A DNA stretch of 35,304 nucleotides, taken from an uncultured Planctomycetales bacterium. GTDB lineage: Bacteria > Omnitrophota > Gorgyraeia > Zapsychrales > Fredricksoniimonadaceae. The notes below the pieces were generated by a model. That model was not told where the DNA came from. It ran no database searches and saw only the letters and a program-made list of their open reading frames with translations. Of this stretch, positions 24,001 to 35,304 are shown in pieces (position 1 is the stretch's first letter; each line of letters opens with the position of its first letter). The stretch lies in NCBI GenBank assembly GCA_964480185.1, contig CAYZPQ010000001.1, positions 8,240 to 43,543 on the forward strand. The letters are read 5' to 3'. Made by a program: the position numbers and the translations under genes.

Positions 24001-26164
24001 TAAGGATTAAATGCATGCCCGTAAACAATGTCACAATCGCTGCTTGAGCAAAAATAATAACTGTCATCATCAAATACTTCTGGGCACGCTGATGAAGCCA
24101 TTCTAATGTTAAAAGACCTTTGATCTTCTTATTGGCCATATACCCATCAATGATCCACGCAAAACCCTTGGCACGCAGAAGACTTAAAACTAAAATCCCG
24201 CCCGTCGTTAACCAGAAATGTGTTTTACCTAGTACGGCAATCAGCATAATCTCAGTAGCAATAGCAATGGCCATAACGCTAATGCCTTGAAGCAAAAGAC
24301 GGTCGATATGACGTTGGCTCATAAATGTATTATCATAGGCCTTCACACCACTGCGTATGATGCGATGGAATCCATAGTACCCTGCATAGGTTGTAAAGCC
24401 TAATAGAGACGAGGCGACAAGATGAATGCTATCAACACTAATTGGAATATAGGCGAGAATATGCTGTGTTGTATCTTTAAAATATACAGAAGCAATGGTG
24501 ATCATTAAGAATGGCACCAGCGATAAGGGCCCAACAATATTTGGAAATCCTTTCATCCCTTTGTCATACATACTCTCTTCCCAACGACGGACATCTTCTT
24601 CGGTCCCTGCCGGTGGTTTATGTTTCATCCATAAATAAATGATCACAGCCGCTGTGATCAAAGCAACAACACTGCTTCCCGTTAACGTACTTAAGCTCGC
24701 GATGAGTGGAACGATCGACGATAAAACCATTGTTGGTTCTTGAATAATGCCTGCATTGACGGGTATTGCTGTGGCTGATGCGGCACCGACGAGTAATAGG
24801 GGCCATAAAATGCTTCTTAGGGTACCATTGCGATGTTTACTTTGTGTATGTTGTTTACGTTGTTGTATATACGTATTAAGTCTATCAATAGCCTCTAACA
24901 CACCCCATGTTAGAGCAGTTATCAGTCCAAACAATACCACAGCCGTCATTGTTTTTTGCCACCATGTTGTCGTGAGCATAAATTCATCGAAATAATCAAT
25001 AGGCATCACCATACGACCCGCATCTTCAGTCAGAATAAATTGTTGAGCCAATGCAGGTGTGCCAAATGCGATGAACGATAAAACGATAATATGCATGGGA
25101 TTCTTTAAATTCCATCTCGCAATCGCTGCAATAAAGATAATCGCTATAAGGATACTAATTGTTTCTGGTGCAATTGTGATCTGTGCATTAAGGCCAATAG
25201 CAGCAAAGAGTGGGCCTGAGGTATTTTGAATCATACTCACAGGCTTATGCTGATAGGGATCATGGCTATTGGTATTGCGTTTGAAAATATCGAATCTGCC
25301 CTTAAACGTATTGGTTGGATACGTGATATTCGTCGGGGCATTCATCTTCATCAAATATGTCGCACCACCTTTAGATTCTAAACGTGGCGTTGATGGCGTA
25401 TCATTCGTCGTAGTCTCTCTTGTCACTGGCTGACGACGCCCAAGGATTTCTGCGCCTTTGCCAGTAGAGTGTTGCACAGGATTGACCGTAACCGTCGGTG
25501 AAGGATCGCGTTGGAATACTTTCCATTTCCAGAATTTAAGCCATGAGAGATCAATTTTCTTAACGACTTCGACAACCTTGGTAAATGGCTTGCCGATACT
25601 AAAACTATTCGTACGTTTACTTAATTCATTACTCCACTGAGCACCTTTAGTATTAAATGGTGTTGGAGTCACAACGTTACCAGTTGTTATACTATTCGTC
25701 GCTGCAGGTGTTTCTCCACGGAATGCATCAACACCCTTTCCACCTTTGTAAGCAAGTCCCTTGAATGTTGGTGTGGGCAATGCGCTGTTAGTCAATTCAC
25801 GTGCTCTGTCACTTAATGCTTTGAAATCAATGACTCCCTTGGATTGTTCCATCACACGAGGACGCTGTGGCAAGGCAAGACCATTGGTCATGACAGCCAA
25901 GTTTTGTTCAAGGGCTTCAAGATTGATCGGTTGTGCTGGTATAGTCGCTGGTGTATTGGTGACCTGTGTGCGTCGAGGTGCATCAATGGTAAAGCTAAAT
26001 GGATCTTGGGCGTGCGTATTAGGTGCGAGTGTAAATAAACCAAATGCTAAAAATATGGCGAAGAGCCCTCGCTTCTTAAACCAACGATTTAAGTAGCCTT
26101 TCTTGTATAAATAACGAATGCCCCATACGGTGGCACCCATACCAGCGAAAGAGACTGTAATAGC
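1..26164 (-). CDS. Giant multidomain membrane protein, downstream segment. It has 8,721 sense codons in the same frame as the upstream ORF and is 3'-partial, running off the window.
   Basis: Hand translation of the minus strand immediately after the TGA, in the same phase, gives uninterrupted protein-like sequence to position 2. The track lists no complete minus ORF in this phase below 26165; the four small minus ORFs there are in other phases. That is expected if no stop is reached. The first in-frame ATG after the TGA is at 26138-26140, inside a predicted TM helix, with no spacer and no SD-like sequence. Many enzyme motifs are listed as separate features below. Confidence 0.85.
2..2900 (-). 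other. Long Gln/Glu/Leu/Lys-rich, probably all-helical or coiled-coil region with no recognised domain
   Basis: The translation is rich in heptad-like helical sequence, for example ...LVELRKDSVQMFTNFDPINHRFIELKKVFTSLKNQHQRMYKA.... It has no hydrophobic TM stretches or catalytic motifs that I can recognise. Confidence 0.35.
2920..4100 (-). other. Superfamily-1 helicase/ATPase core, Upf1/DNA2-like (AAA_11/AAA_12 type)
   Basis: Walker A is VVEGPAASGKTEM, with GPAASGKT at 4004-4027. Motif II is VIIMDEASRE at about 3651-3680. Motif III is LILIGDLEQMGPF at about 3555-3595. Further motifs are LTKNYRAVPLLADLVSELSYAGQV, VVTFYTGQIELL, TTPQSFQGGERKAIIVD and LTVALSRARDHMAVI at about 2930-2975. Confidence 0.7.
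4890..5290 (-). other. Cluster of predicted transmembrane helices
   Basis: Hydrophobic stretches include SLPVVAAFVALLSSVYFL, FLLIFSSVITPFVITT and WISLILLLTSIVFVGIAIVMTYW. Confidence 0.5.
6390..6680 (-). other. HEAT/PBS-lyase-type repeats
   Basis: The translation reads RLAAAQLLGEAQHP...GRIQAAMALALHGHQDAIRTIIDRLKIEDDPRVRDVLLWALRHG. Confidence 0.45.
8861..8941 (-). other. Internal Sec-type signal-peptide-like segment (AMA|Q)
   Basis: The segment reads KLKRIVARYVMPWIIGLIAIFPSIAMA|QTAANGNDSS. It lies within a TM-helix cluster spanning about 8150-9420. Confidence 0.45.
9332..9412 (-). other. Internal Sec-type signal-peptide-like segment (AMA|D)
   Basis: The segment reads KATKRNSLKSALIVTSLLIIAIAPAMA|DNSFVALHPN. 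It shows a classical n/h/c-region layout with an AxA site. Confidence 0.45.
10230..10870 (-). other. HIT/GalT-superfamily-like domain (GDPGP1 / Ap4A-phosphorylase-like nucleotidyl transferase or phosphorylase)
   Basis: RRCPLCSS has its CxxC at 10838-10849. It is followed by GNDFVAIREDYPYF...ATIARKSH and GYNHKDSGGKVQHQAYKLF, with QHQAY at 10601-10615; compare HLHFQAY in GDP-hexose phosphorylases. The histidine pattern is not canonical. Confidence 0.4.
13190..13267 (-). other. Internal lipoprotein-signal-like segment with a lipobox (LTGC)
   Basis: RFKEIKLFIASWLLPLLIAVSALTGC|MTQSRNNGG has L-T-G-C at 13190-13201. This fits the [LVI][ASTVI][GAS]C consensus after a positively charged n-region and a hydrophobic h-region. 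Confidence 0.45.
13595..13609 (-). other. Second HExxH motif (HELHH), a possible metallopeptidase-like site
   Basis: The motif sits in MMIILLHELHHTDQGK, within a soluble block at about 13300-14060. Only the short motif supports this call. Confidence 0.3.
14240..14765 (-). other. Pro/Val/Glu/Ala/Thr-rich low-complexity linker
   Basis: The translation reads KPVEAQTVQVSAPPVEPQAATAQDP...TEPSPVNMPVREEVVVPSTPVAAEAKAIEPVVLPASIIETTPPAMPVITPEVVMPPVTTEMNAPAAV. The 136-aa plus-strand ORF at 14292-14702 is its antisense shadow. Confidence 0.6.
14900..15400 (-). other. HEAT/PBS-lyase-type helical repeats
   Basis: Repeats are recognisable in SSPVRAFGLISLSDV, DEFVRYVAWRLMERF and ENPHVQVAAAHVATNF, at a spacing of about 30-40 residues. 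Confidence 0.45.
15878..15976 (-). other. Internal signal-peptide-like segment (n-region, h-region, ANA|Q)
   Basis: The segment reads RRNLQGKIVSAASGAATVFIAGLIALQYSLANA|QSV. Two or three further TM helices follow downstream to about 15650. Confidence 0.45.
16100..16570 (-). other. Fic/Fido-like domain with a degenerate active-site motif
   Basis: YLRIQPFEFARGQQARILLDYMLIRAGYPPL has its motif at 16187-16222. QPFEFARGQQAR replaces the canonical HPFx(D/E)GNGRxxR. Helical Fic-core-like sequence lies upstream (EEDFFEINRIL...GKWRVGH). Confidence 0.5.
17190..18210 (-). other. DHH/DHHA2 phosphoesterase domain (family-II inorganic pyrophosphatase-like)
   Basis: Motif I is RVIGVIGHKKPDMDAVISAMLTAW at 18121-18200, matching GHxxPDxDxxxS. 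The DHH motif LHDHHAYM has DHH at 17786-17794. A C-terminal DHHA2-like part follows, around FYFNSPLSGVFDEKG...FTIVNISD. Confidence 0.6.
19740..20530 (-). other. APH/choline-kinase-fold small-molecule kinase domain
   Basis: The catalytic loop LEHIHGDFMLENVMIN has the HxDxxxxN motif at 19883-19906. It is followed by FRLIDPRGGDIGYDRAYEHAK at about 19801-19833, matching the IDxxxxxxGDxxYD pattern. An N-lobe-like segment VGTVVKIFWSAS...VVRKEE lies upstream. Confidence 0.6.
20680..21690 (-). other. UDPGP-family (UGP/UAP-like) sugar-1-phosphate nucleotidyltransferase domain
   Basis: APIFFFGGAMTRMRK at about 21625-21675 resembles the L(A/N)GGxGTR(L/M)G loop, with Gly replaced by Met. LPFGNGDISGAL at about 21181-21216 resembles PxG(H/N)G(D/G). 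Further on is GAYLFSDGSRRFLVEDRR. Confidence 0.5.
22630..23365 (-). other. HAD-superfamily subfamily IIB domain (phosphatase or PMM-type phosphomutase)
   Basis: Motif I is RRLIVIADKDNTLAE, with DxDxT at 23330-23344. It is followed by FAIATG, and the C-terminal motif is VNKGSAITQLL...IVYFGDEFYGNDEPV, matching the KG...GD..ND pattern typical of HAD-IIB. Confidence 0.65.
23500..24840 (-). repeat. Polytopic membrane module, copy 2
   Basis: Copy 2 runs KHRNGTLRSILWPLLLVG...ALITAAVIIYLWMKHKPPAGTEE...KGMKGFPN...YIPISVDSIH...QKYLMMTVIIFA...WVFALQGFVGLMIFEG...NDNFTNTVLDLKVGWTDAFFYWPIVHA...KLGTMLAITATFAG...KKGFISRWFKQRN...NTYAQDQFSL. Similarity is visible at nucleotide level, for example 26401-26470 against 23921-23990. 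The offset between copies is about 2.49 kb. Confidence 0.8.
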
Positions 26165-27330
26165 TCACATCACGCCAACTTTGGCTAATGGATGCTTTAC
26201 ATCAACTAATGAGGCAATCCATGGGAATACTTTTGTTGATGCATGTAAAATTGGCCAATAGAAGAATGCATCGGTCCATGGTATTTTCAAATCTAAAATG
26301 GTGTTTGTAAATGTATCGTTAATCGTCTTACGTAAGTCGTTTGTCACATGTCTTACTTGAATGGCAGTATATAATTCTCGAACAATGTCGCGTGTTTTAT
26401 TGGTGTAATACATTAATCCTTCAAATATCATCAACCCAACAACACCCTGCAAGGCAAAAACCCATGACGATTGTAATGAATAGCCACTATCTAAAATTAA
26501 ATACATTCCTGTAATCCACGTCGCAATCGCAGCAGGAGCGAATAAAATCGCGGTCATTAATAAATATTTTTGCGCATGTGCGTAGATTAGTTCTAATGAC
26601 AACTTGCCTTTATTATTTAAGCTCGCCATCTTCGCATCCATGATCAACTTAAATCCATAAGCACGTACCATGCCTAATACCAAAATACCAAATGTCGTCG
26701 CGATGACTTGGGTTTTTCCGATCATGTAAATCAGAGCTATTTCCGCGCCAATCGCTGATACAGCTAATAATGTTCCACCAATGTAATTATTTCTGATAAT
26801 TGTTTTCGAAACACGCACACGATCAAGAGCATTCACAGCGCTGCGTATGTAACGATGGAAGATGTAAAAACCAACATAGGTTGCCAACGCTAAGATTGAC
26901 GTGGCCACATAGTGAAGACTTAAAGAGCTAATGGGGATGTAACTTAAAACTTTTGTCGTTTGTATTGGGAAAAATACTTGAGCTAATACGATACCAAGGA
27001 ATGTTGGGACAAACATCGGAGCAACTGCATTCGGGAATGTCTTCATGCCCTTTGCATGAATTGTTGCAATCCATTCAAATGCTTTCTCACCTGTGCCTGC
27101 TGGGGGTCTGTTGGCGATCCAGGTGCGGATGACGATGGCGGCGGTGATGAGTGCAACAATAAAAGCGCCGGTTGGGGTTGATAGTGTCGCGAATAAACCT
27201 AACACAGGTGTTTCGTTAACCATTGTTGTACTAGAACCAATGACATCTGCATTAAGCGTGCTGAAATTTGACGTAGCAAGAATCAATCCTGCTAAAAATA
27301 GCATCCAGCGAATGGAGCGGTGCATTTTTA
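25990..27330 (-). repeat. Polytopic membrane module, copy 1. It spans the in-frame TGA.
   Basis: Copy 1 runs MHRSIRWMLFLAGL...ALITAAIVIRTWIANRPPAGTGE...KGMKTFPN...YIPISSLSLH...QKYLLMTAILFA...WVFALQGVVGLMIFEG...NDTFTNTILDLKIPWTDAFFYWPILHA...KVGVM*AITVSFAG...KKGYLNRWFKKRG...NTHAQDPFSF. It is collinear with copy 2 at a roughly estimated 45-50% amino-acid identity. Confidence 0.8.
26165..26167 (-). other. The only in-frame stop codon (TGA) in 11,767 codons. It could be a read-through or recoding site, a nonsense mutation, or a sequence error.
   Basis: The minus-strand context is aaa gtt ggc gtg atg TGA gct att aca gtc. The flanking peptide KVGVM*AITVSFAGMGATVWG aligns with KLGTMLAITATFAGIGALVFG in the paralogous module. 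In that copy the equivalent codon is TTG (Leu) at 23669-23671. Confidence 0.6.
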
Positions 27331-30300
27331 GTAGCAAGGTCTTAATTTGATGATGGTAGACTAAAGCAAGTACCGTTAATCCTACTGCAATTAAACTATG
27401 TGAATAAAAAGCCATAAGGATTGGCAACATAATATGGGCTGAACCACCATCTGGACTCGCTGGTGGATCAACACGGGTTACACTTTGTCTAAACACATCT
27501 TCAACTCTTTTCCCTGGTTGAAACTCGTCTCTGACAGCTGCTGGTCGGAAAATACTCTCATATGGCTTCTTTTTGCTCATGACAAAATCTAAATCTTCTT
27601 CTGCTATTAAATTCGAATCATTAAATTGATGGCCCATTACGCCGGCATTAACAAGTGCGTAATAACGCATATCTTCTTGTATGCCAAAAACATTTTTAGC
27701 TTCATGGAAATACTGATACTCAAAACGATTATTAGCATTATTGAGGAAGTACATCCGGCTCACATCACGGGCAGGATTTTCATCAGGGCCTAATAAATGA
27801 TGCCCGATGATTTCATGACGAAGAATATCATTAAGCAATGCAATAAATCTAACGGAGTCTTTATCCTCCACATTTAATACTGGTGCTCTCATTAATTTCT
27901 TATTAATGACAACAGGCTTCTCTATTCCGGTGAAATCATAATAAGCCACGTCATCGCTATCAAGATATCTGACATCAACAAGTCTCTCAAACTCTCTAAT
28001 TCCTAAATAATCAAGAGAGTCCAAAAGATTCTCTTGTTTTTTTATACCTAGAGAGTATTGAATGTATCGATTAATTTGCTCATCATTAAGCGCTTCATAC
28101 GTCAATCGCTGATTAGATAATAACTTTGCAGGATAATTTGATGCCGCCGCCGCTTCTTCTTCTTTAATACGTTCTTCTTTCATATTGGATGGAACATCCC
28201 AAACAACATCATAATCATTATCACCTGAGGCAATTGGTTTTGGAGATCTCGTTGTATAGACTTTTGTCTTACTTGTTGAATCCCATGGAAAATATTTCCA
28301 AATCAAAGCCAAGAACTTATCAGATCCCTTCGCCTCAATTAAGGATATGCCGGTAAACATCTTCACAAAGAAACGTTGAATAGCGACCATGCGTACTAAG
28401 CCGTCATACATTTTATTATGTAGTTCGCGTGTGTGAGAATTAAAGTTTGTGAAATCAACATCACCTAAATGATGGTGACTATCTGTAGCATTTTTATCAT
28501 TCAATTGACGCTGGCCAAAAGTAAAGACTTCTGCTGAACCCATGAATATCTTCTGGAATCTCCAGAAACCACTTAATACACCCTTGGTTTGTTTCGCTGT
28601 CATTTTAACAGCATCAAACTTAGCATCTTCAATCGGCATACCAAAAATACCTTTGGTACCTCTCACCACACCACTCAAGAAGCGTGCTCCAAAATGATCT
28701 TCGGCATTTCCACCATGGACATGAACTTCTTGGCTGCTATGCGCTGTACCACGTAATTTTCGAACCAATAGCTCAAGAATTTGATGATAAACAGACTCTT
28801 CCCCAATAACAATAGTTGGATTTCCTAAACGCTCCCATAATGGACGTTTTTGAATAAATCGTAATAAAATCGTAAACGCAAATATATTAAATAAATATGC
28901 TGTTGCTTCAATCAAATACGCTTTAAAACCAGGATCCATATGTAAAATGATTCCCGTCACAAGTAACTTATGGAAAAGTAAAGGCGCAATAATAACCCCA
29001 AGAATGACATGCACCACACCCACAACCTTGCCCCACATCACTTCTTTAACACGCCATTCCCACTTTGAAGCATCTTTATCAATAGCTTTCGTCATATCGC
29101 TTTCAATTTGATTTCCATCAGCATCTTTACCAACAATTGTTTCAATCTTAGCTAACGCCTCGTCACGTTTTTCTTTCAATAACTTAAGTTGTATTTCATC
29201 TAGACGCATTCCTAAAGGATTATCTTTTGGAAAGGTATTCTTAACGCCTTCCGCTAAATTAATTGCAATTTCTAATATCTCAAAAATTAATGCGGTTGTA
29301 TCTACTGTGGATGCTTCCGAAAGCCTAATATTTGCTCCTGTGACAAATATTCTGCCCTTAAATCTACTCTTACTGTTAAATCGCTGACCAATAGCCATAC
29401 CCATCATGCTATCAACACGATTTGTAACAACGAAGACTCGGTCACCAAAAAGTTTATAAAGCTTTCCCGTCCCAGATAATGTTGGGAATGTTTGTCCAGA
29501 ATCACTGATTGCAATAAAGATAGTACGTTTTGTCGCACCAAATTTCTTAGGATCAGCGATTAACTTATTTGATGAAATTGCATCAATATTAAGATCCGGA
29601 AAAATATGTTCTAAGACTTCTTTGAGTTTTTCACCTGCCCATTGTGATTTTTCAAAACCTGTAATAATAATGTGTCTTTGTTTAAACTCTGGCAACACAT
29701 TACGTCGCGCGTCTCTACGGAATATAGAACGTAAATGGTGTACCATCCGACTAAAAACTGAAAGGGCTTTCTGAAATGGCATTTTCTCAGATGGAAGTTC
29801 TTGAAATGCCTTTACTTCTTTTTCCCACTGCTCAACTAATCTTCCTTGCGAGTCAACAAATGCTTTCACCATCCATTGAGACAATTCACTCAAATGAGCT
29901 TGAATATCTTTATCAAAATCAGTGATAAGTTCATGCATTTGATCTGGCGTAATGCGTGTTCTTGGATTACGACGGTATAAGCGTGACGCCAGATTCTCTG
30001 CATGCGAGCCAAGTTGATTCGTTAACATCATCTTCACATAATCAACCATAACTGTATTATTTTCCACCGCTCGAATAAAATCTGCTGTTAGCGCACGTCT
30101 CGCATCAGGTTGGAGATCTACGAAAACTCGGTTTGTATAACCAATAAGTTGATTACGAATTAAACCATCTAAAGAACCCCACTTCGTTGAATACTTCCGT
30201 AAATATCGTTCAATTTCAATACCATTAACCATCTTAACTAATTCATTTGTACTAATGGCATTGAATTTACTTTGTTCTAAGTTCTGATTTCTTAATGATG

Positions 30301-33300
30301 GATTTTCTACAGGTAAGAAACTATTTCTTATCCAATGCAATACAGATGCTGTATCTTCAAAATCAACCCATAATAAATTTGCACCGGGGTCATATTCCTG
30401 TAACTTCCTAAAGTATGGATTCTTTTGTTCATCTAATTCCATCTTTCTAGCTTCAATATCTTCAGTTGTGAGTTCGCGATTCAGATTCGCGTTAAACCCA
30501 CGTATTTTTGGACGGCCATCTTTAGTCATCGTAAAGTCAATTACTTCTCCACGACCTTGAATATCCATATCAAGACGATGTGTCAAATACCCACGATCAC
30601 CATATTTCACTTGTAATACAAGCGCTTCGGAAGCAAAGGCAAAGAATTTCTCAACAGTGTTCCATCCTAAGGAAATAGATTGATCTAATGTAAATAACGT
30701 GACCCCGTCATCAGGAATTGACGTACGAATAACAAAACCAAAGCTACCAAAAGATCCTTTTTGGAATTGACGCCCTGCATGATAACGATTATTTAAGAAG
30801 AAGTTGCGTACCACCCCTCCTACAATTTCATTAATCTTTGCTTCGCCACCACCAAATGTTGAAATAATTTTCATAGCTTTGGCATCGCCTTGAAGCTGTT
30901 GCACTAAGTCATTTTGTAATGCTTGTAATGCATCGTACTGTGCTTTTAATTGAGGATGCTTTGCTACTTGTTCTTTCGTCACATACAAATGATTTAATGC
31001 TTTCGATTCCATACGAAGTTTTGGACGACTTACGGCAGCAGCATGTTTAGCAAAAACGCGATCTGAGATTGTCGCTAAATAATTACGGTCATTGATAGGT
31101 AACATGGTGTTCGGCGCATTCTTATCATCTAAGTCTTTGCCACCGGTAAGATCTTCAGGTTTCGATAAGCTCAAGACGAATCCTAATTGCCATGACGCAG
31201 TAAAACGTTGTTGTGTCCAGAATAAACGAGCGATACCAGATGCTGGTGGAGAATCACCTGGAGTGTCATCAGCCCATGGGTAATCCGATGGTTTCTTTAA
31301 TTGCTTAACATACAAGGCTCTTCTTAAGAATGGTCGTAATTCATCTTTGTTATTACCGTTATCAAGTTTACGGCCAAGAATAAAGTAGTCATCAAAATCA
31401 CCGTTATGCGTAATGGCGATAATAAAGTTACCAAACTTTTGAACGAGAATACCCTTTTCATTAAAATCCCAATAAGAAATTCTCTCTTCAATGAATTGCA
31501 CATGTGGATGAGATGCTTTCTTCGTCGCCTTACCAGCTGTTGCAAAACGCACGTGCCCTGACCATATGCCTAATCGTGTGCCTAAGAAATACCCTGATTC
31601 GATTAATTTCTCAATAACGCTTAACCATCTATTTAACGTGATGTTTTCTAAATTTGCGCGTTTTCCCTTAATTTCTTTTAAGAGGACAAGAATTGTTTGC
31701 ATTGATTTATTCATGACAAAATGAACTAAACCAATTGTCTGACCACCCCGAATTGTAATTAAATTGATCTGATTCTTGATCCCCTCTTGAACCCAGTGAG
31801 GTGCAATTTCTTTGGATTCTTCTTCAGTTAAAATACCGCCAATACCAAAGTTTCCGCATTCACTCTTATCGCCAACACCTAAACGTAATATATCCGTCTG
31901 AATAGACCAAATTAATGCAAATACGGAAGCTGCCATCACAATTGGCCAAGGTAAAATCGTTGCTACTGGTGAAGTCATCCAATCATGCTTATAGGCAATC
32001 ACTGCAGCGACTAAGGATATGTTGACCGCTGCCCCTGCTAAACGATTTGTCAATGTGGATTGAACGGTTACAGAAGGACCTTTAGCGTAGTACCCAAGGA
32101 CAGGAATTAAAGCGCCAACGATATGAAGAATATTGAGATTGCCTAATATATTACTTAATGTGAGTGTTCTAAAATTACCTCTTAAGACACTTTCAAGAAT
32201 ATGTCCCCACTCATTAGCAATAAAGAATCCAAATACGGCAGCTCTCCACATGAAGGCATATTCAATAGCCATCTTCACATCGCGCGTTTTCCATAATGTG
32301 AGCGCAATCACAACGATATCTAACAATCTTAAGAGACGATTTGGCGCAGCTTCCTCGACATAATCGCCCTCATCGCCAACCATGACCTTAACGCCATCCG
32401 TATTATCGCTTGGGATAGTTGTTGTATCATCTAGTACCGCTGCATTGGTCTCAACAATGGGCTTGTCATCTGTTGCAGCTGATGAGGCATTCGTTGAAGT
32501 GTCATTTGAGTCGACATTATCTAAGATGGGATTATCGTCCTCAATCATTAAATCATCTTTAGCATCTGCTGATTGTGCTGCCGCAGGCTTCAGCTGTGGT
32601 GGCGGAGGTGTTGTAGTTTTCGTCTTAGGAGTTGTTGGCTTCGCCTTGTCTGCTTTCTTTGTCTTCTTTTCTTTTGGCTTTCTCCAGGCGCGAATAGCTA
32701 ATTTAACTTCTTCGAATATCTCCGTCATATTGCTTGGCACAAAACCACTTAGTTTTTCAGTTATAGCAGACGCATAATTTTTGATGACATAAAATGCAAT
32801 AATAAGTCCTAATAAAGCAAGGATCGCATATCCGATGAAATGCATATAAATATGATTGTATTGAATGTACTTAGGATAGAAATCAAACTTGTGGCCCTTT
32901 CTTAAGTCTCTTACTTCCACCGCTTCCGCAGCAGGATCAATTTCTTTTAATAATGGCAAAATACGTTTAATGATAATATTAAACTCATTTGTACGATCAC
33001 GTTGTTGATTCAACACAATATACTGTTTCAAATCAGGTACAGCATATTGGCCTATCTTACGAAGCGCATAGTGTGCTGCAGCCTGAGCTGGTTCATATTT
33101 GTTATAAGGTGAAAAACGATTGAAGAACATTGGGTCGCGATCTTCACCGCTCACCAACACTTTAATAATCTCAGGAGTAATGACACTGCGTTGATTACGG
33201 CTTGCTGCTAAGTCTCCAGCAAATTTCACCATGGCAATTTCTTGATATGTTTTAGGACCAGAATGAGTACTAAATTCTGCTAATACACCCGCCATGGTCG

Positions 33301-35304
33301 CTTCGGCTTTTCCACTATTGGATCTGGAAATTTGATCTCCTGCTAAAACTTGTAAATCCCCATTATTGAAATTATTTGTGGCGTTTGCTGCCGATGTGTT
33401 TAACGCGATATCTTCATAGAATTGAATTGCCCCATTTGTTCTCACAGGATATTGACCCATAACCCATTGAATACTCATTTGCGCATCAATACCGCCAAAG
33501 ACAGAAGCATCCTTGGCAATATAAGGAGCTAAGGCTTGTTGTGTATTACCTAGGCCAATGATTGCATTTGTTAAAAATGCTTTGTCACCGATTGAAAGTG
33601 CTCTCGCTGATTCATATAATGAATTTGTTGACGGCGCTACACGACTATAATTTTCGCGCAGATCACGATGCTTTTGCACGAAGTCTTCATATAAATAACG
33701 TGTCTCATCTGTCCATCCATGCCATGGTTCATCATAATGAATTTGCCACCAGCGTGGTTGCTCATCAAGCAATAAGCTATCTTGGCTATAAGGTTTGTAT
33801 TCCACAGGTAAACGTTGTGCAAATGTGTGATAAGCGCGCTCATCTACTTCGGCTAAGATCGATGCCAATGGCCAGTTGACGCGCCCCTTGCTATATTGCT
33901 TAGCTAACTCATTTGGGAGAATTATTGTGCTAGCTGCTCTATATTGTTGAGACAACATGACTTCACGCATAGCATCCATTAACTTGAAATATTCACGACG
34001 ATGTTCAATGTTTTCATTCCAATAATTAGCATGGAAAACAGTTTCTGTTTGAGCTAAGCGTAATACATTATCTTTGCGTTGTTCTGGTGTTAATTGTCTC
34101 GTTGGATACTCTAAGACATTCATTAATGCCACTTTATTGTCATTCGAATAGTTATCGTAGACAGTCGCGACATTATCCTTGGTGTAATTTAATTCTTCAA
34201 AGATCGTATTGATCGTTGGATCATTTTTCGGTGCAATATAGAAATCTGGTTGATTAACAACTTTATTAAGTACGACAATTGCATTCGAGGTGGTCACATC
34301 GTCACTCTTTTTCATATCAAGCATGATGCGTCCACCATATGGCGGAATATAATTTAATCTAGCTAATTGCTCAACTGCAGTACTTGTGAGACCATGTTTT
34401 GCTTCTCTTAATAATCCATTCGCTATTGTCGTCGATGTACGAATCGTTTCTACTTCTTCGGCTCTTAAAGCAACCACGCCACTCTCATCATCAATACGGA
34501 TACCTAAGGCATTGGCTGCCAGAGCACGGATAACATCGACTTCATTTAATTTCTTCGGATCAGTCCCAACACTTAACAAGGCTTCACGATGACGTGCCAC
34601 TAAACGTGTTTGAATATCTGCACGACGATCTAATGGGACATTGCGGATGCTTGTAACCACATTGCTAAATGATTGGTTAAATAAATCAAAGCTATCTGGT
34701 GTAAGACCACTATCTCTGAAATAACCTAACATTGGTTCAATGGATAAATTAATAGGACGATTTTGAGCTGCTAAACCAGGCACTGTAGCGACGACAGCAC
34801 GAATATTTGGATTGGCATGGTTGATGTAAGGTTCTAGGCTTCGTAACGCTTCAGGTGTACCGATGTTAATTAATCGTTCTAACAAGCTCTTGGTATGAAT
34901 ATAGTCGGTTGTTTTGGCTAAGCGTGCTTCGATCGCTAAACGGTATTGATCTTGAGCTGGGTTGATCAACATCACTTTGCGACGTTCTTCATGCATTTGA
35001 TTCAACACATCAGCCCAGTCATTGGCCATCTCATCATCAGGTGAATCACGGAATGCTTCTTCAACAATAGGCCAGAACACTAAATCAGGTGTGGTTTTCT
35101 TGAAATACTGAGCCAATCCTCGACGTTGATCTAAGGTAAGTCTGTCATTGGTGACATTGGCTAAGTACATCACGTTCTTAAAATCTTGTGGATTCGTTGA
35201 GAGAATTAGCTTTTGTACCAATCTTAAACGCATTGCTTCTTGTTTTTTGCTTGTGCGTAATGAGGTTTCGATTCTCTTATTTAATAAGTCATCAAAGTCA
35301 GCAG
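26165..35304 (-). CDS. Giant multidomain membrane protein, upstream segment. It is 3022 aa from the first ATG at 35231-35233 and is probably 5'-partial. It ends at the in-frame TGA.
   Basis: The ORF track lists a 3022-aa minus-strand ORF ending in TGA at 26165-26167. The same frame stays open for 23 more codons upstream of the ATG, to the window edge (...ADFDDLLNKRIETSLRTSKKQEA-MRLRL...). I see no clear Shine-Dalgarno sequence before that ATG. The translation carries class-II amidotransferase and SIS motifs, an HExxH motif and several TM clusters. Confidence 0.9.
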   Translation of the reverse strand, partial: ADFDDLLNKRIETSLRTSKKQEAMRLRLVQKLILSTNPQDFKNVMYLANVTNDRLTLDQRRGLAQYFKKTTPDLVFWPIVEEAFRDSPDDEMANDWADVLNQMHEERRKVMLINPAQDQYRLAIEARLAKTTDYIHTKSLLERLINIGTPEALRSLEPYINHANPNIRAVVATVPGLAAQNRPINLSIEPMLGYFRDSGLTPDSFDLFNQSFSNVVTSIRNVPLDRRADIQTRLVARHREALLSVGTDPKKLNEVDVIRALAANALGIRIDDESGVVALRAEEVETIRTSTTIANGLLREAKHGLTSTAVEQLARLNYIPPYGGRIMLDMKKSDDVTTSNAIVVLNKVVNQPDFYIAPKNDPTINTIFEELNYTKDNVATVYDNYSNDNKVALMNVLEYPTRQLTPEQRKDNVLRLAQTETVFHANYWNENIEHRREYFKLMDAMREVMLSQQYRAASTIILPNELAKQYSKGRVNWPLASILAEVDERAYHTFAQRLPVEYKPYSQDSLLLDEQPRWWQIHYDEPWHGWTDETRYLYEDFVQKHRDLRENYSRVAPSTNSLYESARALSIGDKAFLTNAIIGLGNTQQALAPYIAKDASVFGGIDAQMSIQWVMGQYPVRTNGAIQFYEDIALNTSAANATNNFNNGDLQVLAGDQISRSNSGKAEATMAGVLAEFSTHSGPKTYQEIAMVKFAGDLAASRNQRSVITPEIIKVLVSGEDRDPMFFNRFSPYNKYEPAQAAAHYALRKIGQYAVPDLKQYIVLNQQRDRTNEFNIIIKRILPLLKEIDPAAEAVEVRDLRKGHKFDFYPKYIQYNHIYMHFIGYAILALLGLIIAFYVIKNYASAITEKLSGFVPSNMTEIFEEVKLAIRAWRKPKEKKTKKADKAKPTTPKTKTTTPPPPQLKPAAAQSADAKDDLMIEDDNPILDNVDSNDTSTNASSAATDDKPIVETNAAVLDDTTTIPSDNTDGVKVMVGDEGDYVEEAAPNRLLRLLDIVVIALTLWKTRDVKMAIEYAFMWRAAVFGFFIANEWGHILESVLRGNFRTLTLSNILGNLNILHIVGALIPVLGYYAKGPSVTVQSTLTNRLAGAAVNISLVAAVIAYKHDWMTSPVATILPWPIVMAASVFALIWSIQTDILRLGVGDKSECGNFGIGGILTEEESKEIAPHWVQEGIKNQINLITIRGGQTIGLVHFVMNKSMQTILVLLKEIKGKRANLENITLNRWLSVIEKLIESGYFLGTRLGIWSGHVRFATAGKATKKASHPHVQFIEERISYWDFNEKGILVQKFGNFIIAITHNGDFDDYFILGRKLDNGNNKDELRPFLRRALYVKQLKKPSDYPWADDTPGDSPPASGIARLFWTQQRFTASWQLGFVLSLSKPEDLTGGKDLDDKNAPNTMLPINDRNYLATISDRVFAKHAAAVSRPKLRMESKALNHLYVTKEQVAKHPQLKAQYDALQALQNDLVQQLQGDAKAMKIISTFGGGEAKINEIVGGVVRNFFLNNRYHAGRQFQKGSFGSFGFVIRTSIPDDGVTLFTLDQSISLGWNTVEKFFAFASEALVLQVKYGDRGYLTHRLDMDIQGRGEVIDFTMTKDGRPKIRGFNANLNRELTTEDIEARKMELDEQKNPYFRKLQEYDPGANLLWVDFEDTASVLHWIRNSFLPVENPSLRNQNLEQSKFNAISTNELVKMVNGIEIERYLRKYSTKWGSLDGLIRNQLIGYTNRVFVDLQPDARRALTADFIRAVENNTVMVDYVKMMLTNQLGSHAENLASRLYRRNPRTRITPDQMHELITDFDKDIQAHLSELSQWMVKAFVDSQGRLVEQWEKEVKAFQELPSEKMPFQKALSVFSRMVHHLRSIFRRDARRNVLPEFKQRHIIITGFEKSQWAGEKLKEVLEHIFPDLNIDAISSNKLIADPKKFGATKRTIFIAISDSGQTFPTLSGTGKLYKLFGDRVFVVTNRVDSMMGMAIGQRFNSKSRFKGRIFVTGANIRLSEASTVDTTALIFEILEIAINLAEGVKNTFPKDNPLGMRLDEIQLKLLKEKRDEALAKIETIVGKDADGNQIESDMTKAIDKDASKWEWRVKEVMWGKVVGVVHVILGVIIAPLLFHKLLVTGIILHMDPGFKAYLIEATAYLFNIFAFTILLRFIQKRPLWERLGNPTIVIGEESVYHQILELLVRKLRGTAHSSQEVHVHGGNAEDHFGARFLSGVVRGTKGIFGMPIEDAKFDAVKMTAKQTKGVLSGFWRFQKIFMGSAEVFTFGQRQLNDKNATDSHHHLGDVDFTNFNSHTRELHNKMYDGLVRMVAIQRFFVKMFTGISLIEAKGSDKFLALIWKYFPWDSTSKTKVYTTRSPKPIASGDNDYDVVWDVPSNMKEERIKEEEAAAASNYPAKLLSNQRLTYEALNDEQINRYIQYSLGIKKQENLLDSLDYLGIREFERLVDVRYLDSDDVAYYDFTGIEKPVVINKKLMRAPVLNVEDKDSVRFIALLNDILRHEIIGHHLLGPDENPARDVSRMYFLNNANNRFEYQYFHEAKNVFGIQEDMRYYALVNAGVMGHQFNDSNLIAEEDLDFVMSKKKPYESIFRPAAVRDEFQPGKRVEDVFRQSVTRVDPPASPDGGSAHIMLPILMAFYSHSLIAVGLTVLALVYHHQIKTLLLKMHRSIRWMLFLAGLILATSNFSTLNADVIGSSTTMVNETPVLGLFATLSTPTGAFIVALITAAIVIRTWIANRPPAGTGEKAFEWIATIHAKGMKTFPNAVAPMFVPTFLGIVLAQVFFPIQTTKVLSYIPISSLSLHYVATSILALATYVGFYIFHRYIRSAVNALDRVRVSKTIIRNNYIGGTLLAVSAIGAEIALIYMIGKTQVIATTFGILVLGMVRAYGFKLIMDAKMASLNNKGKLSLELIYAHAQKYLLMTAILFAPAAIATWITGMYLILDSGYSLQSSWVFALQGVVGLMIFEGLMYYTNKTRDIVRELYTAIQVRHVTNDLRKTINDTFTNTILDLKIPWTDAFFYWPILHASTKVFPWIASLVDVKHPLAKVGVM
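27800..27817 (-). other. HExxH motif (HEIIGH), a possible zinc-metallopeptidase-like site
   Basis: The translation LNDILRHEIIGHHLLGPDENP covers residues 2473-2478 of the 3022-aa ORF. Only a short motif supports this, and I do not recognise the surrounding family. Confidence 0.3.
29330..29700 (-). other. SIS (sugar isomerase / sugar-phosphate binding) domain, GlmS-like
   Basis: The translation reads IIITGFEKSQWAGEKLKEVL...TIFIAISDSGQTFPTLSG. Compare the GlmS SIS motifs ACGTSxxAG and AISQSGETADTL. Confidence 0.6.
30500..31858 (-). other. Class-II (Ntn-type) glutamine amidotransferase domain, GlmS/PurF-like, with insertions
   Basis: Motifs appear in canonical order. First is SE-CGNFGIGG, with the Cys codon at 31856-31858 (residue 1126 of the 3022-aa ORF). 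Next is GIWSGHVRFATAGKATKKASHPH, compare GlmS GIAHTRWATHG...NAHPH. Then come ITHNGDFDDY (HNG motif), DDTPGDS...IARLF, GSFGFVIRT and FAFASEALVL. The motifs spread over about 450 codons, which is more than a typical domain of this class. Confidence 0.7.
31895..32345 (-). other. Cluster of predicted transmembrane helices
   Basis: Consecutive hydrophobic stretches include LLRLLDIVVIALTLW, AAVFGFFIANEWGHIL, ILHIVGALIPVLGYY, AAVNISLVAAVIAY and ILPWPIVMAASVFALIW. The cluster ends 15-20 residues before the amidotransferase Cys. Confidence 0.5.
32560..32690 (-). other. Lys/Thr/Pro-rich low-complexity linker
   Basis: The translation reads KPKEKKTKKADKAKPTTPKTKTTTPPPPQLKPAAAQSADAKDD. It follows a single TM helix (YMHFIGYAILALLGLIIAFYVI, about 32775-32850). 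Confidence 0.6.

Follow-up and report, generated by a model that had tools for sequence, protein, structure and literature searches.

Organization of the locus

We analyzed a window of 35,304 nucleotides, by which we mean the whole stretch of DNA under study, taken from contig CAYZPQ010000001.1 (positions 8,240 to 43,543 of the forward strand; assembly GCA_964480185.1) of an uncultured Planctomycetales bacterium that GTDB places within the Omnitrophota. The element of interest is a module resembling the class-II glutamine amidotransferases, whose predicted catalytic cysteine does not stand at the start of its protein and lies more than a thousand residues inside it. All features described below are on the minus strand, coordinates are those of the window, and residues are numbered along the open reading frame (ORF) that holds the module.

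The minus strand of the window is essentially one reading frame, with 3,045 codons open from the right edge, a single TGA at 26165-26167, and 8,721 more codons running off the left edge. Apart from the two consecutive same-frame ORFs that this arrangement defines, no ORF of at least 150 amino acids (aa) was found in the window. The first of the two, ORF A (26165..35233), runs from an ATG at 35233 to the TGA and holds the module; its 3,022-aa protein is identical to a 3,022-aa entry, P0003, in a public collection, recorded from an NCBI contig of 57.9 kb. On the plus strand, the letters GCA at 31856-31858 and TTC at 31859-31861 correspond to TGC (Cys) and, just before it, GAA (Glu) on the minus strand. 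The cysteine is residue 1126 of ORF A and sits in the local context ...SIQTDILRLGVGDKSE|CGNFGIGGILTEEE..., in which the bar marks the predicted scissile bond Glu1125|Cys1126 (31858/31859). Three hydrophobic helices, recognized from hydropathy and in an AlphaFold2 (AF2) model, precede it (aa 991-1017, 1061-1080, and 1096-1119), and are joined to it by a short linker, GVGDKSE (aa 1119-1125; 31859..31879), whose last residue, Glu1125, is the predicted P1 position. The original prediction, made from the letters of the window, had put the nucleophile of an N-terminal nucleophile (Ntn)-type amidotransferase at this codon, about 1,126 residues into the ORF, in this local sequence and just after a transmembrane cluster, and was correct on every one of these points.

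Homology to class-II amidotransferases

The class-II (Ntn) glutamine amidotransferase domain spans aa 1126-1616 (30386..31858) and was delimited with AF2, Foldseek, and hhalign. Its motifs run from Cys1126 to FAFASE at aa 1531-1536, and the domain ends near aa 1616; the equivalent part of GlmS has ~240 aa, and the difference is made up of ~250 aa of insertions. The earlier description of motifs spread over about 450 codons, with insertions, is therefore accurate. When an alignment of 104 family sequences was compared by hhalign with E. coli GlmS (reference sequence checked against 4amv/2j6h), the two were paired with a probability of 92.7% and an E-value of 4.3e-7, and the "EC" of the window fell on the "MC" of GlmS, which aligns Cys1126, the predicted N-terminal nucleophile, with GlmS Cys1. 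The original prediction was to be given up if alignment showed the Cys away from the structurally equivalent nucleophile position; it occupies that position.

The hhalign alignment is collinear with GlmS through R26-G27, R73/T76, H86, N98-G99, and D123. The counterparts in the window are RGG for Arg26-Gly27 (aa 1162-1164; 31742..31750), GHVRFAT for H71-T-R73-W-A-T76 (aa 1226-1232; 31538..31558), SHPH for His86 (aa 1241-1244), HNGD for the oxyanion hole Asn98-Gly99 (aa 1276-1279; 31397..31408), and GDSP for Asp123, which binds the alpha-amino group of glutamine (aa 1326-1329; 31247..31258). Residues R1229, N1277, G1278, and D1327 are those aligned to R73, N98, G99, and D123, respectively. Conservation was counted over 104 representatives with a mutual identity of at most 50%. 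The equivalents of Cys1, Gly2, Arg26, Gly27, Arg73, Thr76, Asn98, Gly99, and Asp123 are invariant in 104/104, as are the His of GHVRFAT and the Asp of HNGD, and the Cys column holds Cys alone. Searched against all PDB sequences, the family profile matched only GlmS/GFAT (best E-value 1.3e-3), and the match to human GFAT1 begins at GFAT1 residue 2, its Cys.

Structure prediction agrees with the alignments. For aa 990-1625, AF2 run with an alignment of 36 sequences gave a model with a mean pLDDT of 86 and a pTM of 0.77; the six residues ahead of Glu-Cys (aa 1119-1124) are disordered in it (pLDDT <50), and a beta-strand begins right after Cys1126. Foldseek matched the model to PDB entries of GlmS (E-value 3.6e-7), PurF, GFAT1, ASNS, and EgtC with a probability of 1.00, with TM scores of 0.65-0.67 on 1xff, the isolated GlmS glutaminase domain. 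These matches are all class-II/Ntn amidotransferases, and we assign the domain the four-layer alpha-beta-beta-alpha Ntn fold, which the model indicates is intact despite the insertions, one of the checks that had been proposed. Judged from alignments and predicted structures together, the likeness to class-II amidotransferases is far above chance, and Cys1126 stands at the class-II nucleophile position.

The homologues from an exhaustive search were needed to reach this result. With 3 sequences, hhalign gave a probability of 44% and an alignment that stopped short of the Cys, and a 3-sequence profile found only a marginal match in the PDB, to a SIS domain. A phmmer search of the PDB with aa 1102-2211 gave no match, and no Pfam glutaminase-domain model (GATase_2/6/7) matched the window protein or 30 family members at E <= 0.01.

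Distribution of the family and position of the cysteine

A word-indexed search found just two homologues, ~30% identical over aa 1002-2335, one of which is a hypothetical protein of a Candidatus Omnitrophota metagenome-assembled genome (MAG). An exhaustive profile search yielded 784 representatives (taken at 50% identity) at E <= 1e-3, and 195 at E <= 1e-30. In a scan of GTDB species genomes, the module was present in Omnitrophota, in MAGs labelled Planctomycetales and Elusimicrobia, in many cyanobacteria (including Nostoc, Scytonema, Leptolyngbya, Chamaesiphon, Pleurocapsa, and Chroococcidiopsis), and in Chromatiaceae (Thiocapsa, Thiocystis, and Thiohalocapsa). Carriers include Thiocapsa marina 5811, Thiocapsa roseopersicina DSM 217, Chroococcidiopsis sp. 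FACHB-1243, Scytonema sp. NUACC26, and Pleurocapsa sp. CCALA 161; the best relative in the scan, 40% identical, is labelled "uncultured Planctomycetales." Cluster look-ups added eukaryotic members from the haptophyte Chrysotila carterae and the dinoflagellates Prorocentrum cordatum and Polarella glacialis (P0099, P0139, and others); occurrence in both cyanobacteria and algae may reflect plastid-related transfer. Automatic UniProt labels call the haptophyte members "Glutamine amidotransferase type-2 domain-containing" and some algal members "SIS domain-containing," and in the literature searched neither this family nor a fusion of M50 with an amidotransferase is described. This is a large and widespread family of membrane-anchored GlmS-like amidotransferases that has so far gone unannotated. 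Two of the 30 family members scanned also carry EF-hand pairs (E-value 2e-16).

An internal Cys is the usual state of the family, including its stand-alone proteins of 1,000-2,500 aa. P0002, a protein of 1,640 aa encoded among housekeeping genes in an Omnitrophota MAG, has the buried-Cys layout; the closest homologue of the window protein, P0010, is a 5,926-aa protein and is ~40% identical to it over aa 931-2524. A different arrangement occurs at 12 cyanobacterial loci, where the Cys has an in-frame stop 2-16 codons ahead of it and the sole start is an ATG directly before it, so that the proteins begin M-C-G-N-F-G, the classical N-terminus of class-II enzymes, in which removal of Met exposes the Cys; P0066 and P0135 likewise begin MC. 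Most other loci have 180-1,100 codons ahead of the same Cys and no adjoining start codon, and the nearest start codon in extended homologues is at least 2 codons upstream of the Cys, usually 9 or more. The family thus includes both N-terminal-Cys and buried-Cys forms, and of the comparative arguments that the buried form must be processed, none is stronger.

Two gene neighborhoods in the family deserve mention. P0001, a stand-alone member (L003, 8527-25736), lies between a GAF-ANTAR regulator and a series comprising Amt, PII, Amt, glutamine synthetase III, GATase, NAD synthase, and glutamate synthase (GltB), a nitrogen-assimilation setting that hints at a glutamine-linked role. Immediately ahead of the cyanobacterial Met-Cys members (L012, L033, L035, and L083; ~700-2990), in the same orientation and only a few bases away, is a gene with three receiver domains and HisKA (and PAS), which suggests a link to two-component signaling.

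The isomerase-like half

A helical linker of ~230 aa separates the glutaminase half from a tandem SIS domain of the GlmS/GFAT isomerase type (aa 1851-2335; 28229..29683). This domain, and a site-2-protease (S2P)-like membrane domain just upstream of the Cys that is described below, had both been overlooked in the original prediction. NCBIfam GlmS models match within it (aa 1852-1945, E-value 1e-5, far under cut-off) and also on the GH.R.AT motif of the glutaminase half (E-value 1e-4). The AF2 model of residues 1830-2345 has a pLDDT of 83.6 and a pTM of 0.85, and Foldseek matches it best to the isomerase domains, of tandem-SIS type, in human GFAT1 and bacterial GlmS (E-value 2.4e-11), with a TM score of 0.69 on Francisella GlmS 3tbf. 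An SxSGxT phosphate loop lies within the domain (29486-29512). Between the SIS halves is a hydrophobic helical hairpin (core aa 2064-2124; 28862..29044), evident from hydropathy and modeled as two long helices (aa ~2046-2127), which is kept in homologues P0001 and P0002.

On the evidence of alignments and models, the whole module is a very divergent, membrane-anchored version of the GlmS domain order. Like GlmS/GFAT (EC 2.6.1.16), it has a class-II glutaminase followed by tandem SIS domains, each half finds its best structural matches in GlmS/GFAT, and CG..G, RG, H.R.AT..HPH, HNG, the Asp123 equivalent, and the SxSGxT loop follow in collinear order. Unlike GlmS/GFAT, its Cys is internal, at residue 1126, the glutaminase domain and the segment that links it to the SIS half are enlarged as given above, the SIS subdomains have a membrane hairpin between them, and a further membrane domain precedes the Cys. 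A normal glmS is also present in 174 of 176 Omnitrophota genomes (bioRxiv 10.64898/2026.06.07.730766).

A site-2-protease-like domain ahead of the cysteine

The membrane domain before the Cys (aa 991-1119; 31877..32263) consists of three long helices in the AF2 model and resembles the site-2 proteases (M50). A hidden Markov model (HMM) of the family's transmembrane domain matches the window at aa 990-1130 with an E-value of 1.5e-16. A membrane domain of ~130 aa stands ahead of the Cys in 87 of the 93 representatives that have an N-terminal extension of at least 90 aa; in the family, HExxH or HExxxH is found 82-160 residues before the Cys (median ~124) and an Asp 11-22 residues before it. The best PDB matches of the membrane-domain profile are S2P/RseP structures, namely Aquifex aq_1964 (9j82, E-value 3.6e-3), an RseP-type protein (7w6y, 6e-3), and MjS2P (3b4r, 0.05). 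Pfam Peptidase_M50 matches 9/28 members and M50B 6/28, with E-values of ~1e-3 to 1e-4 that fall under the curated thresholds. These M50 values are marginal yet mutually consistent. The family shares with M50 site-2 proteases (RseP, MjS2P, Peptidase_M50B) an HExxH in a membrane helix and an Asp in a later one, and differs from them in its small core of three helices and in having no PDZ domain.

In the window copy, the HExxH expected in a transmembrane helix is replaced by NEWGH (aa 1007-1011; 32201..32215), a degenerate form in which, by the family alignment columns, the first His has become Asn. The Asp expected in a later helix is present: TDI (aa 1113-1115; 31889..31897), at the end of the last membrane helix and 12 residues before the Cys, contains Asp1114, a candidate third metal ligand that is nearly invariant in the family and invariant in a 28-sequence alignment. 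Among ~85 representatives, the four motif residues read H-E-H-D in 59-65, N-E-H-D in 8, and H-G-H-D in 8, and the N-E-H-D group includes both the window (NEWGH) and its closest homologue P0010 (NEAAH). The NExxH form and the HGxxH form (eight cyanobacterial-type representatives) represent a recurrent, lineage-specific loss of a zincin catalytic residue with the Asp and the amidotransferase site left intact.

Two further observations concern the surroundings of this domain. A low-complexity linker rich in Lys, Pro, Thr, and Asp (KPKEKKTKKADKAKPTTPKTKTTTPPPPQLKP...; aa 827-960, ~32380-32750) separates the protease-like membrane domain from the single membrane helix that precedes it (aa 794-825). 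Far downstream, beyond the SIS domain, is a second HExxxH motif, HEIIGH (aa 2473-2478; 27800-27817), in a region conserved with P0010 up to aa 2524 and followed by a cluster of membrane helices (aa 2599-2943). We considered HEIIGH as the mark of a second protease-like domain and rejected it, as the family membrane-domain HMM matches only aa 990-1130 in the whole 11,744-codon frame.

Proposed maturation of the buried cysteine

Class-II amidotransferases use the alpha-amino group of Cys1 as general base. The window sequence has no in-frame start codon adjoining Cys1126, and therefore removal of Met cannot expose it; with that route excluded and a free alpha-amino Cys needed, a catalytically competent enzyme requires a cut at Glu1125|Cys1126. 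Two other explanations of the internal Cys were rejected. Internal initiation at the Cys does not fit the preceding codon, GAA, and the sole ATG in the vicinity (GA-ATG-C) lies in another frame, where, judged by eye, it meets a TGA ~12 codons on. Nor does the Cys resemble that of a lipoprotein lipobox, which requires the pattern L-[AS]-[GA]-C, against DKSE|C here and F[YN]|C in relatives.

We consider it reasonably probable that aa ~990-2335 form one module composed of an S2P-like membrane domain, a short disordered linker, an Ntn domain beginning at Cys1126, and a tandem SIS domain with its membrane hairpin, and that this module is matured at its internal Cys. Cys1126 would be the catalytic nucleophile and its free alpha-amino group the general base, and a precursor would be cut between Glu1125 and Cys1126 to give an active glutaminase. 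The most likely route would be intramolecular autoproteolysis by the Cys itself, through an N-to-S acyl shift followed by hydrolysis. The "propeptide" would in that case comprise 1,125 residues, including the membrane domain, and the cut would leave a 1,125-aa N-terminal piece and a piece of ~1,897 aa that the SIS hairpin, as a second anchor, would hold at the membrane. The processed enzyme would hand the ammonia released from glutamine on to an acceptor of the sugar-phosphate type, bound in the SIS domain. The analysis shows the homology, where the Cys lies, how well it and the glutaminase residues are conserved, and the folds; that the bond is cut, how it is cut, what the acceptor is, and which side of the membrane the enzyme occupies are inferred.

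There is precedent for such a maturation. MEROPS family C44 includes class-II precursors with an internal catalytic Cys that is freed when the peptide ahead of it is removed autocatalytically (PMC9140057), and eukaryotic and many microbial GPRATases shed a propeptide autocatalytically, with Arabidopsis GPRAT2 exposing Cys87 in E. coli (PMC7056826). Autoproteolysis is preferred here because class-II enzymes with a leader remove that leader autocatalytically. The module shares with the propeptide-bearing PurF enzymes (B. subtilis PurF, Arabidopsis GPRAT2; MEROPS C44) a catalytic Cys that is internal in the precursor and needs exposure, and differs from them in an acceptor domain that is SIS and not phosphoribosyltransferase. 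The end of the B. subtilis PurF propeptide, ...NEE|CGVFGIWG, resembles ...KSE|CGNFGIGG of the window.

Several points weigh against this interpretation. The cleavage is deduced from sequence, models, and analogy. Known class-II propeptides are 11 to a few tens of residues long, and those of PurF are soluble; the pro-region here would be ~100 times longer, with membrane helices, and we know of no precedent for a membrane-embedded pro-region of 1,125 residues, which might hinder the strained geometry of self-cleavage. A conserved protease-like domain lies just upstream, which suggests that more than self-cleavage may be involved. At P2, 84/101 family members have a hydrophobic residue (F/Y/L/I), whereas the window has Ser. 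Curated libraries give little support: Pfam has no relevant match in the whole ORF, and the NCBIfam GlmS models TIGR01135 and NF001484 score 20.7 bits (cut-off 418) and 24.1 bits (cut-off 381), respectively. Finally, hhalign of the SIS region against GlmS aligned only the SxSGxT loop and left the equivalents of E. coli Glu488, His504, and Lys603 unaligned. Because the curated GlmS thresholds failed and these isomerase catalytic residues were not aligned, we file the module as a GlmS-like class-II amidotransferase and not as GlmS.

The alternative that survives best, although we regard it as unlikely, is that no cut takes place and the internal-Cys domain is a noncatalytic or weakly catalytic sensor of glutamine or another ligand, or a structural pseudoenzyme, within a large membrane protein. 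Besides the unproven status of the cleavage and the degenerate protease-like motif of the window, it draws on the neighborhoods of relatives: P0001 is found among the nitrogen-regulation genes GAF-ANTAR, Amt, PII, GS-III (glutamine synthetase III), and GltB, and cyanobacterial members follow a signaling gene with multiple receiver, HisKA, and PAS domains, so that glutamine sensing is conceivable. However, the Cys, the oxyanion-hole Asn-Gly, and the glutamine-binding Arg and Asp are all among the invariant residues, as would be expected for catalysis and not for binding alone, and the Met-Cys members show that an N-terminal Cys is used in the family. The original prediction had left the choice between proteolytic processing and an inactive domain. 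By our reading of the conservation, the invariant active-site residues form a conserved catalytic site, which makes the inactive domain the less likely of the two, and the need for a cut if the domain is to be active stands as a strong deduction.

Somewhat less probable still is that the fused S2P-like domain, as a dedicated maturase, cuts Glu1125|Cys1126 in cis, with zinc held by HExxH on the first helix and by the Asp on the last, and the scissile bond ~12 residues past that Asp. Such a domain precedes the Cys in nearly all extended representatives, its best PDB profile matches are S2P/RseP, and members match the Pfam peptidase families M50 and M50B. From the order of secondary structure, both motifs would sit near the C-termini of AF2 helices one and three, on the membrane face where the amidotransferase emerges, and the linker to the Cys is modeled as disordered. 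Yet the M50 assignment depends on marginal E-values, the P1 residue is not conserved in the family, the first His ligand is lost in the window, in P0010, and in six other representatives, and eight more have HGxxH without the catalytic Glu. All of the NExxH and HGxxH representatives retain every glutaminase residue, which argues that exposure of the Cys is independent of the metal site; metalloprotease-dependent maturation is therefore hard to reconcile with these variants, although cleavage in cis by the S2P-like domain is still attractive for relatives with an intact motif, such as P0001 and P0002. Least plausible, and in our view very improbable, is that the Cys is kept solely as a self-cleaving device that severs the N-terminal part and has no glutaminase function afterwards: Ntn folds are intrinsically self-processing and the splitting of a giant membrane protein could itself be a function, but Met-Cys members, which have nothing to remove, keep the same invariant residues, the glutamine-binding equivalents of Arg73 and Asp123 are invariant, and a GlmS-type acceptor domain always follows.

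The giant-gene context

The TGA at 26165-26167 (surroundings 26120-26185) separates ORF A from a same-frame ORF of >8,721 codons. The translation on its two sides, ...AKVGVM*AITVSFAGMGATVWGIRYLYKK...KKRGLFAIFLAFGLFTLAPNTHA/QDP, can be taken for a membrane helix that continues or for a new protein starting from an ATG at 26141 with a signal peptide. Were the TGA read through, the frame would exceed 11,700 codons, and the "giant product" of the original prediction exists only if that happens. The downstream ORF B (2-26164) contains a HAD-type Hydrolase_3 domain (E-value 1e-8), weak DHH and APH-kinase-like matches, HEAT repeats, and an SF1 helicase (AAA_11/AAA_12, E-value 2e-28), and looks like a mosaic multi-enzyme giant protein. 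At the locus of P0010 (L004, 1-27781), the 5,926-aa ORF and the end of a same-strand ORF of 12,870 aa overlap, making this, too, a giant-gene locus of consecutive very long ORFs.

The window therefore resembles the loci of giant membrane proteins of Candidatus Omnitrophota, both in its frame of 3,045 + 8,721 codons with a single TGA and in the closest relatives of the module, which are proteins from Omnitrophota or from MAGs of the Planctomycetes-Verrucomicrobia-Chlamydiae (PVC) type. The paper on Omnitrophota giant proteins leaves their cleavage open and proposes C39 or S8 peptidase domains as cutters; the words "amidotransferase" and "glutamin" occur in it 0 times (bioRxiv 10.1101/2023.11.21.568195). 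The site considered here is of another kind, an amidotransferase Cys. The original prediction went further and held that a cut at this bond would be direct evidence for processing of the giant product as a polyprotein, a claim that we do not uphold: the cleavage is predicted and not observed, a buried Cys is a trait of the family, and ORF A ends at the TGA. Because the same buried-Cys layout occurs in stand-alone proteins of 1,000-2,500 aa, it is not evidence that the whole frame is a polyprotein. The comparison of family members instead indicates that the buried Cys is one family-specific maturation site and not a sign of general polyprotein processing of a giant gene, and a "processed giant polyprotein" is not established.

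Implications

In giant bacterial proteins, where cleavage has only been speculated upon, Glu1125|Cys1126 is one exact predicted bond and thus a target for mass spectrometry. Family members occur in cultured cyanobacteria, purple sulfur bacteria, and eukaryotic algae, with the catalytic Cys usually placed behind a protease-like membrane domain, and the Met-Cys, HExxH, NExxH, and HGxxH variants constitute a natural comparative series that can separate autoproteolysis from protease-assisted maturation.

The arrangement of an S2P-like domain followed by an Ntn amidotransferase is a conserved one, shared by Omnitrophota, cyanobacteria, and algae of the haptophyte and dinoflagellate groups. A bolder reading, which we offer as speculation with a small chance of being right, is that of a membrane-bound proteolytic switch, in which a single cut at the invariant Cys would activate a GlmS-like enzyme and at the same time separate or activate an intramembrane protease. 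If true, this would be the first sequence-defined and experimentally addressable cleavage site in giant proteins of the Omnitrophota type, and whether they are cut would become directly testable.

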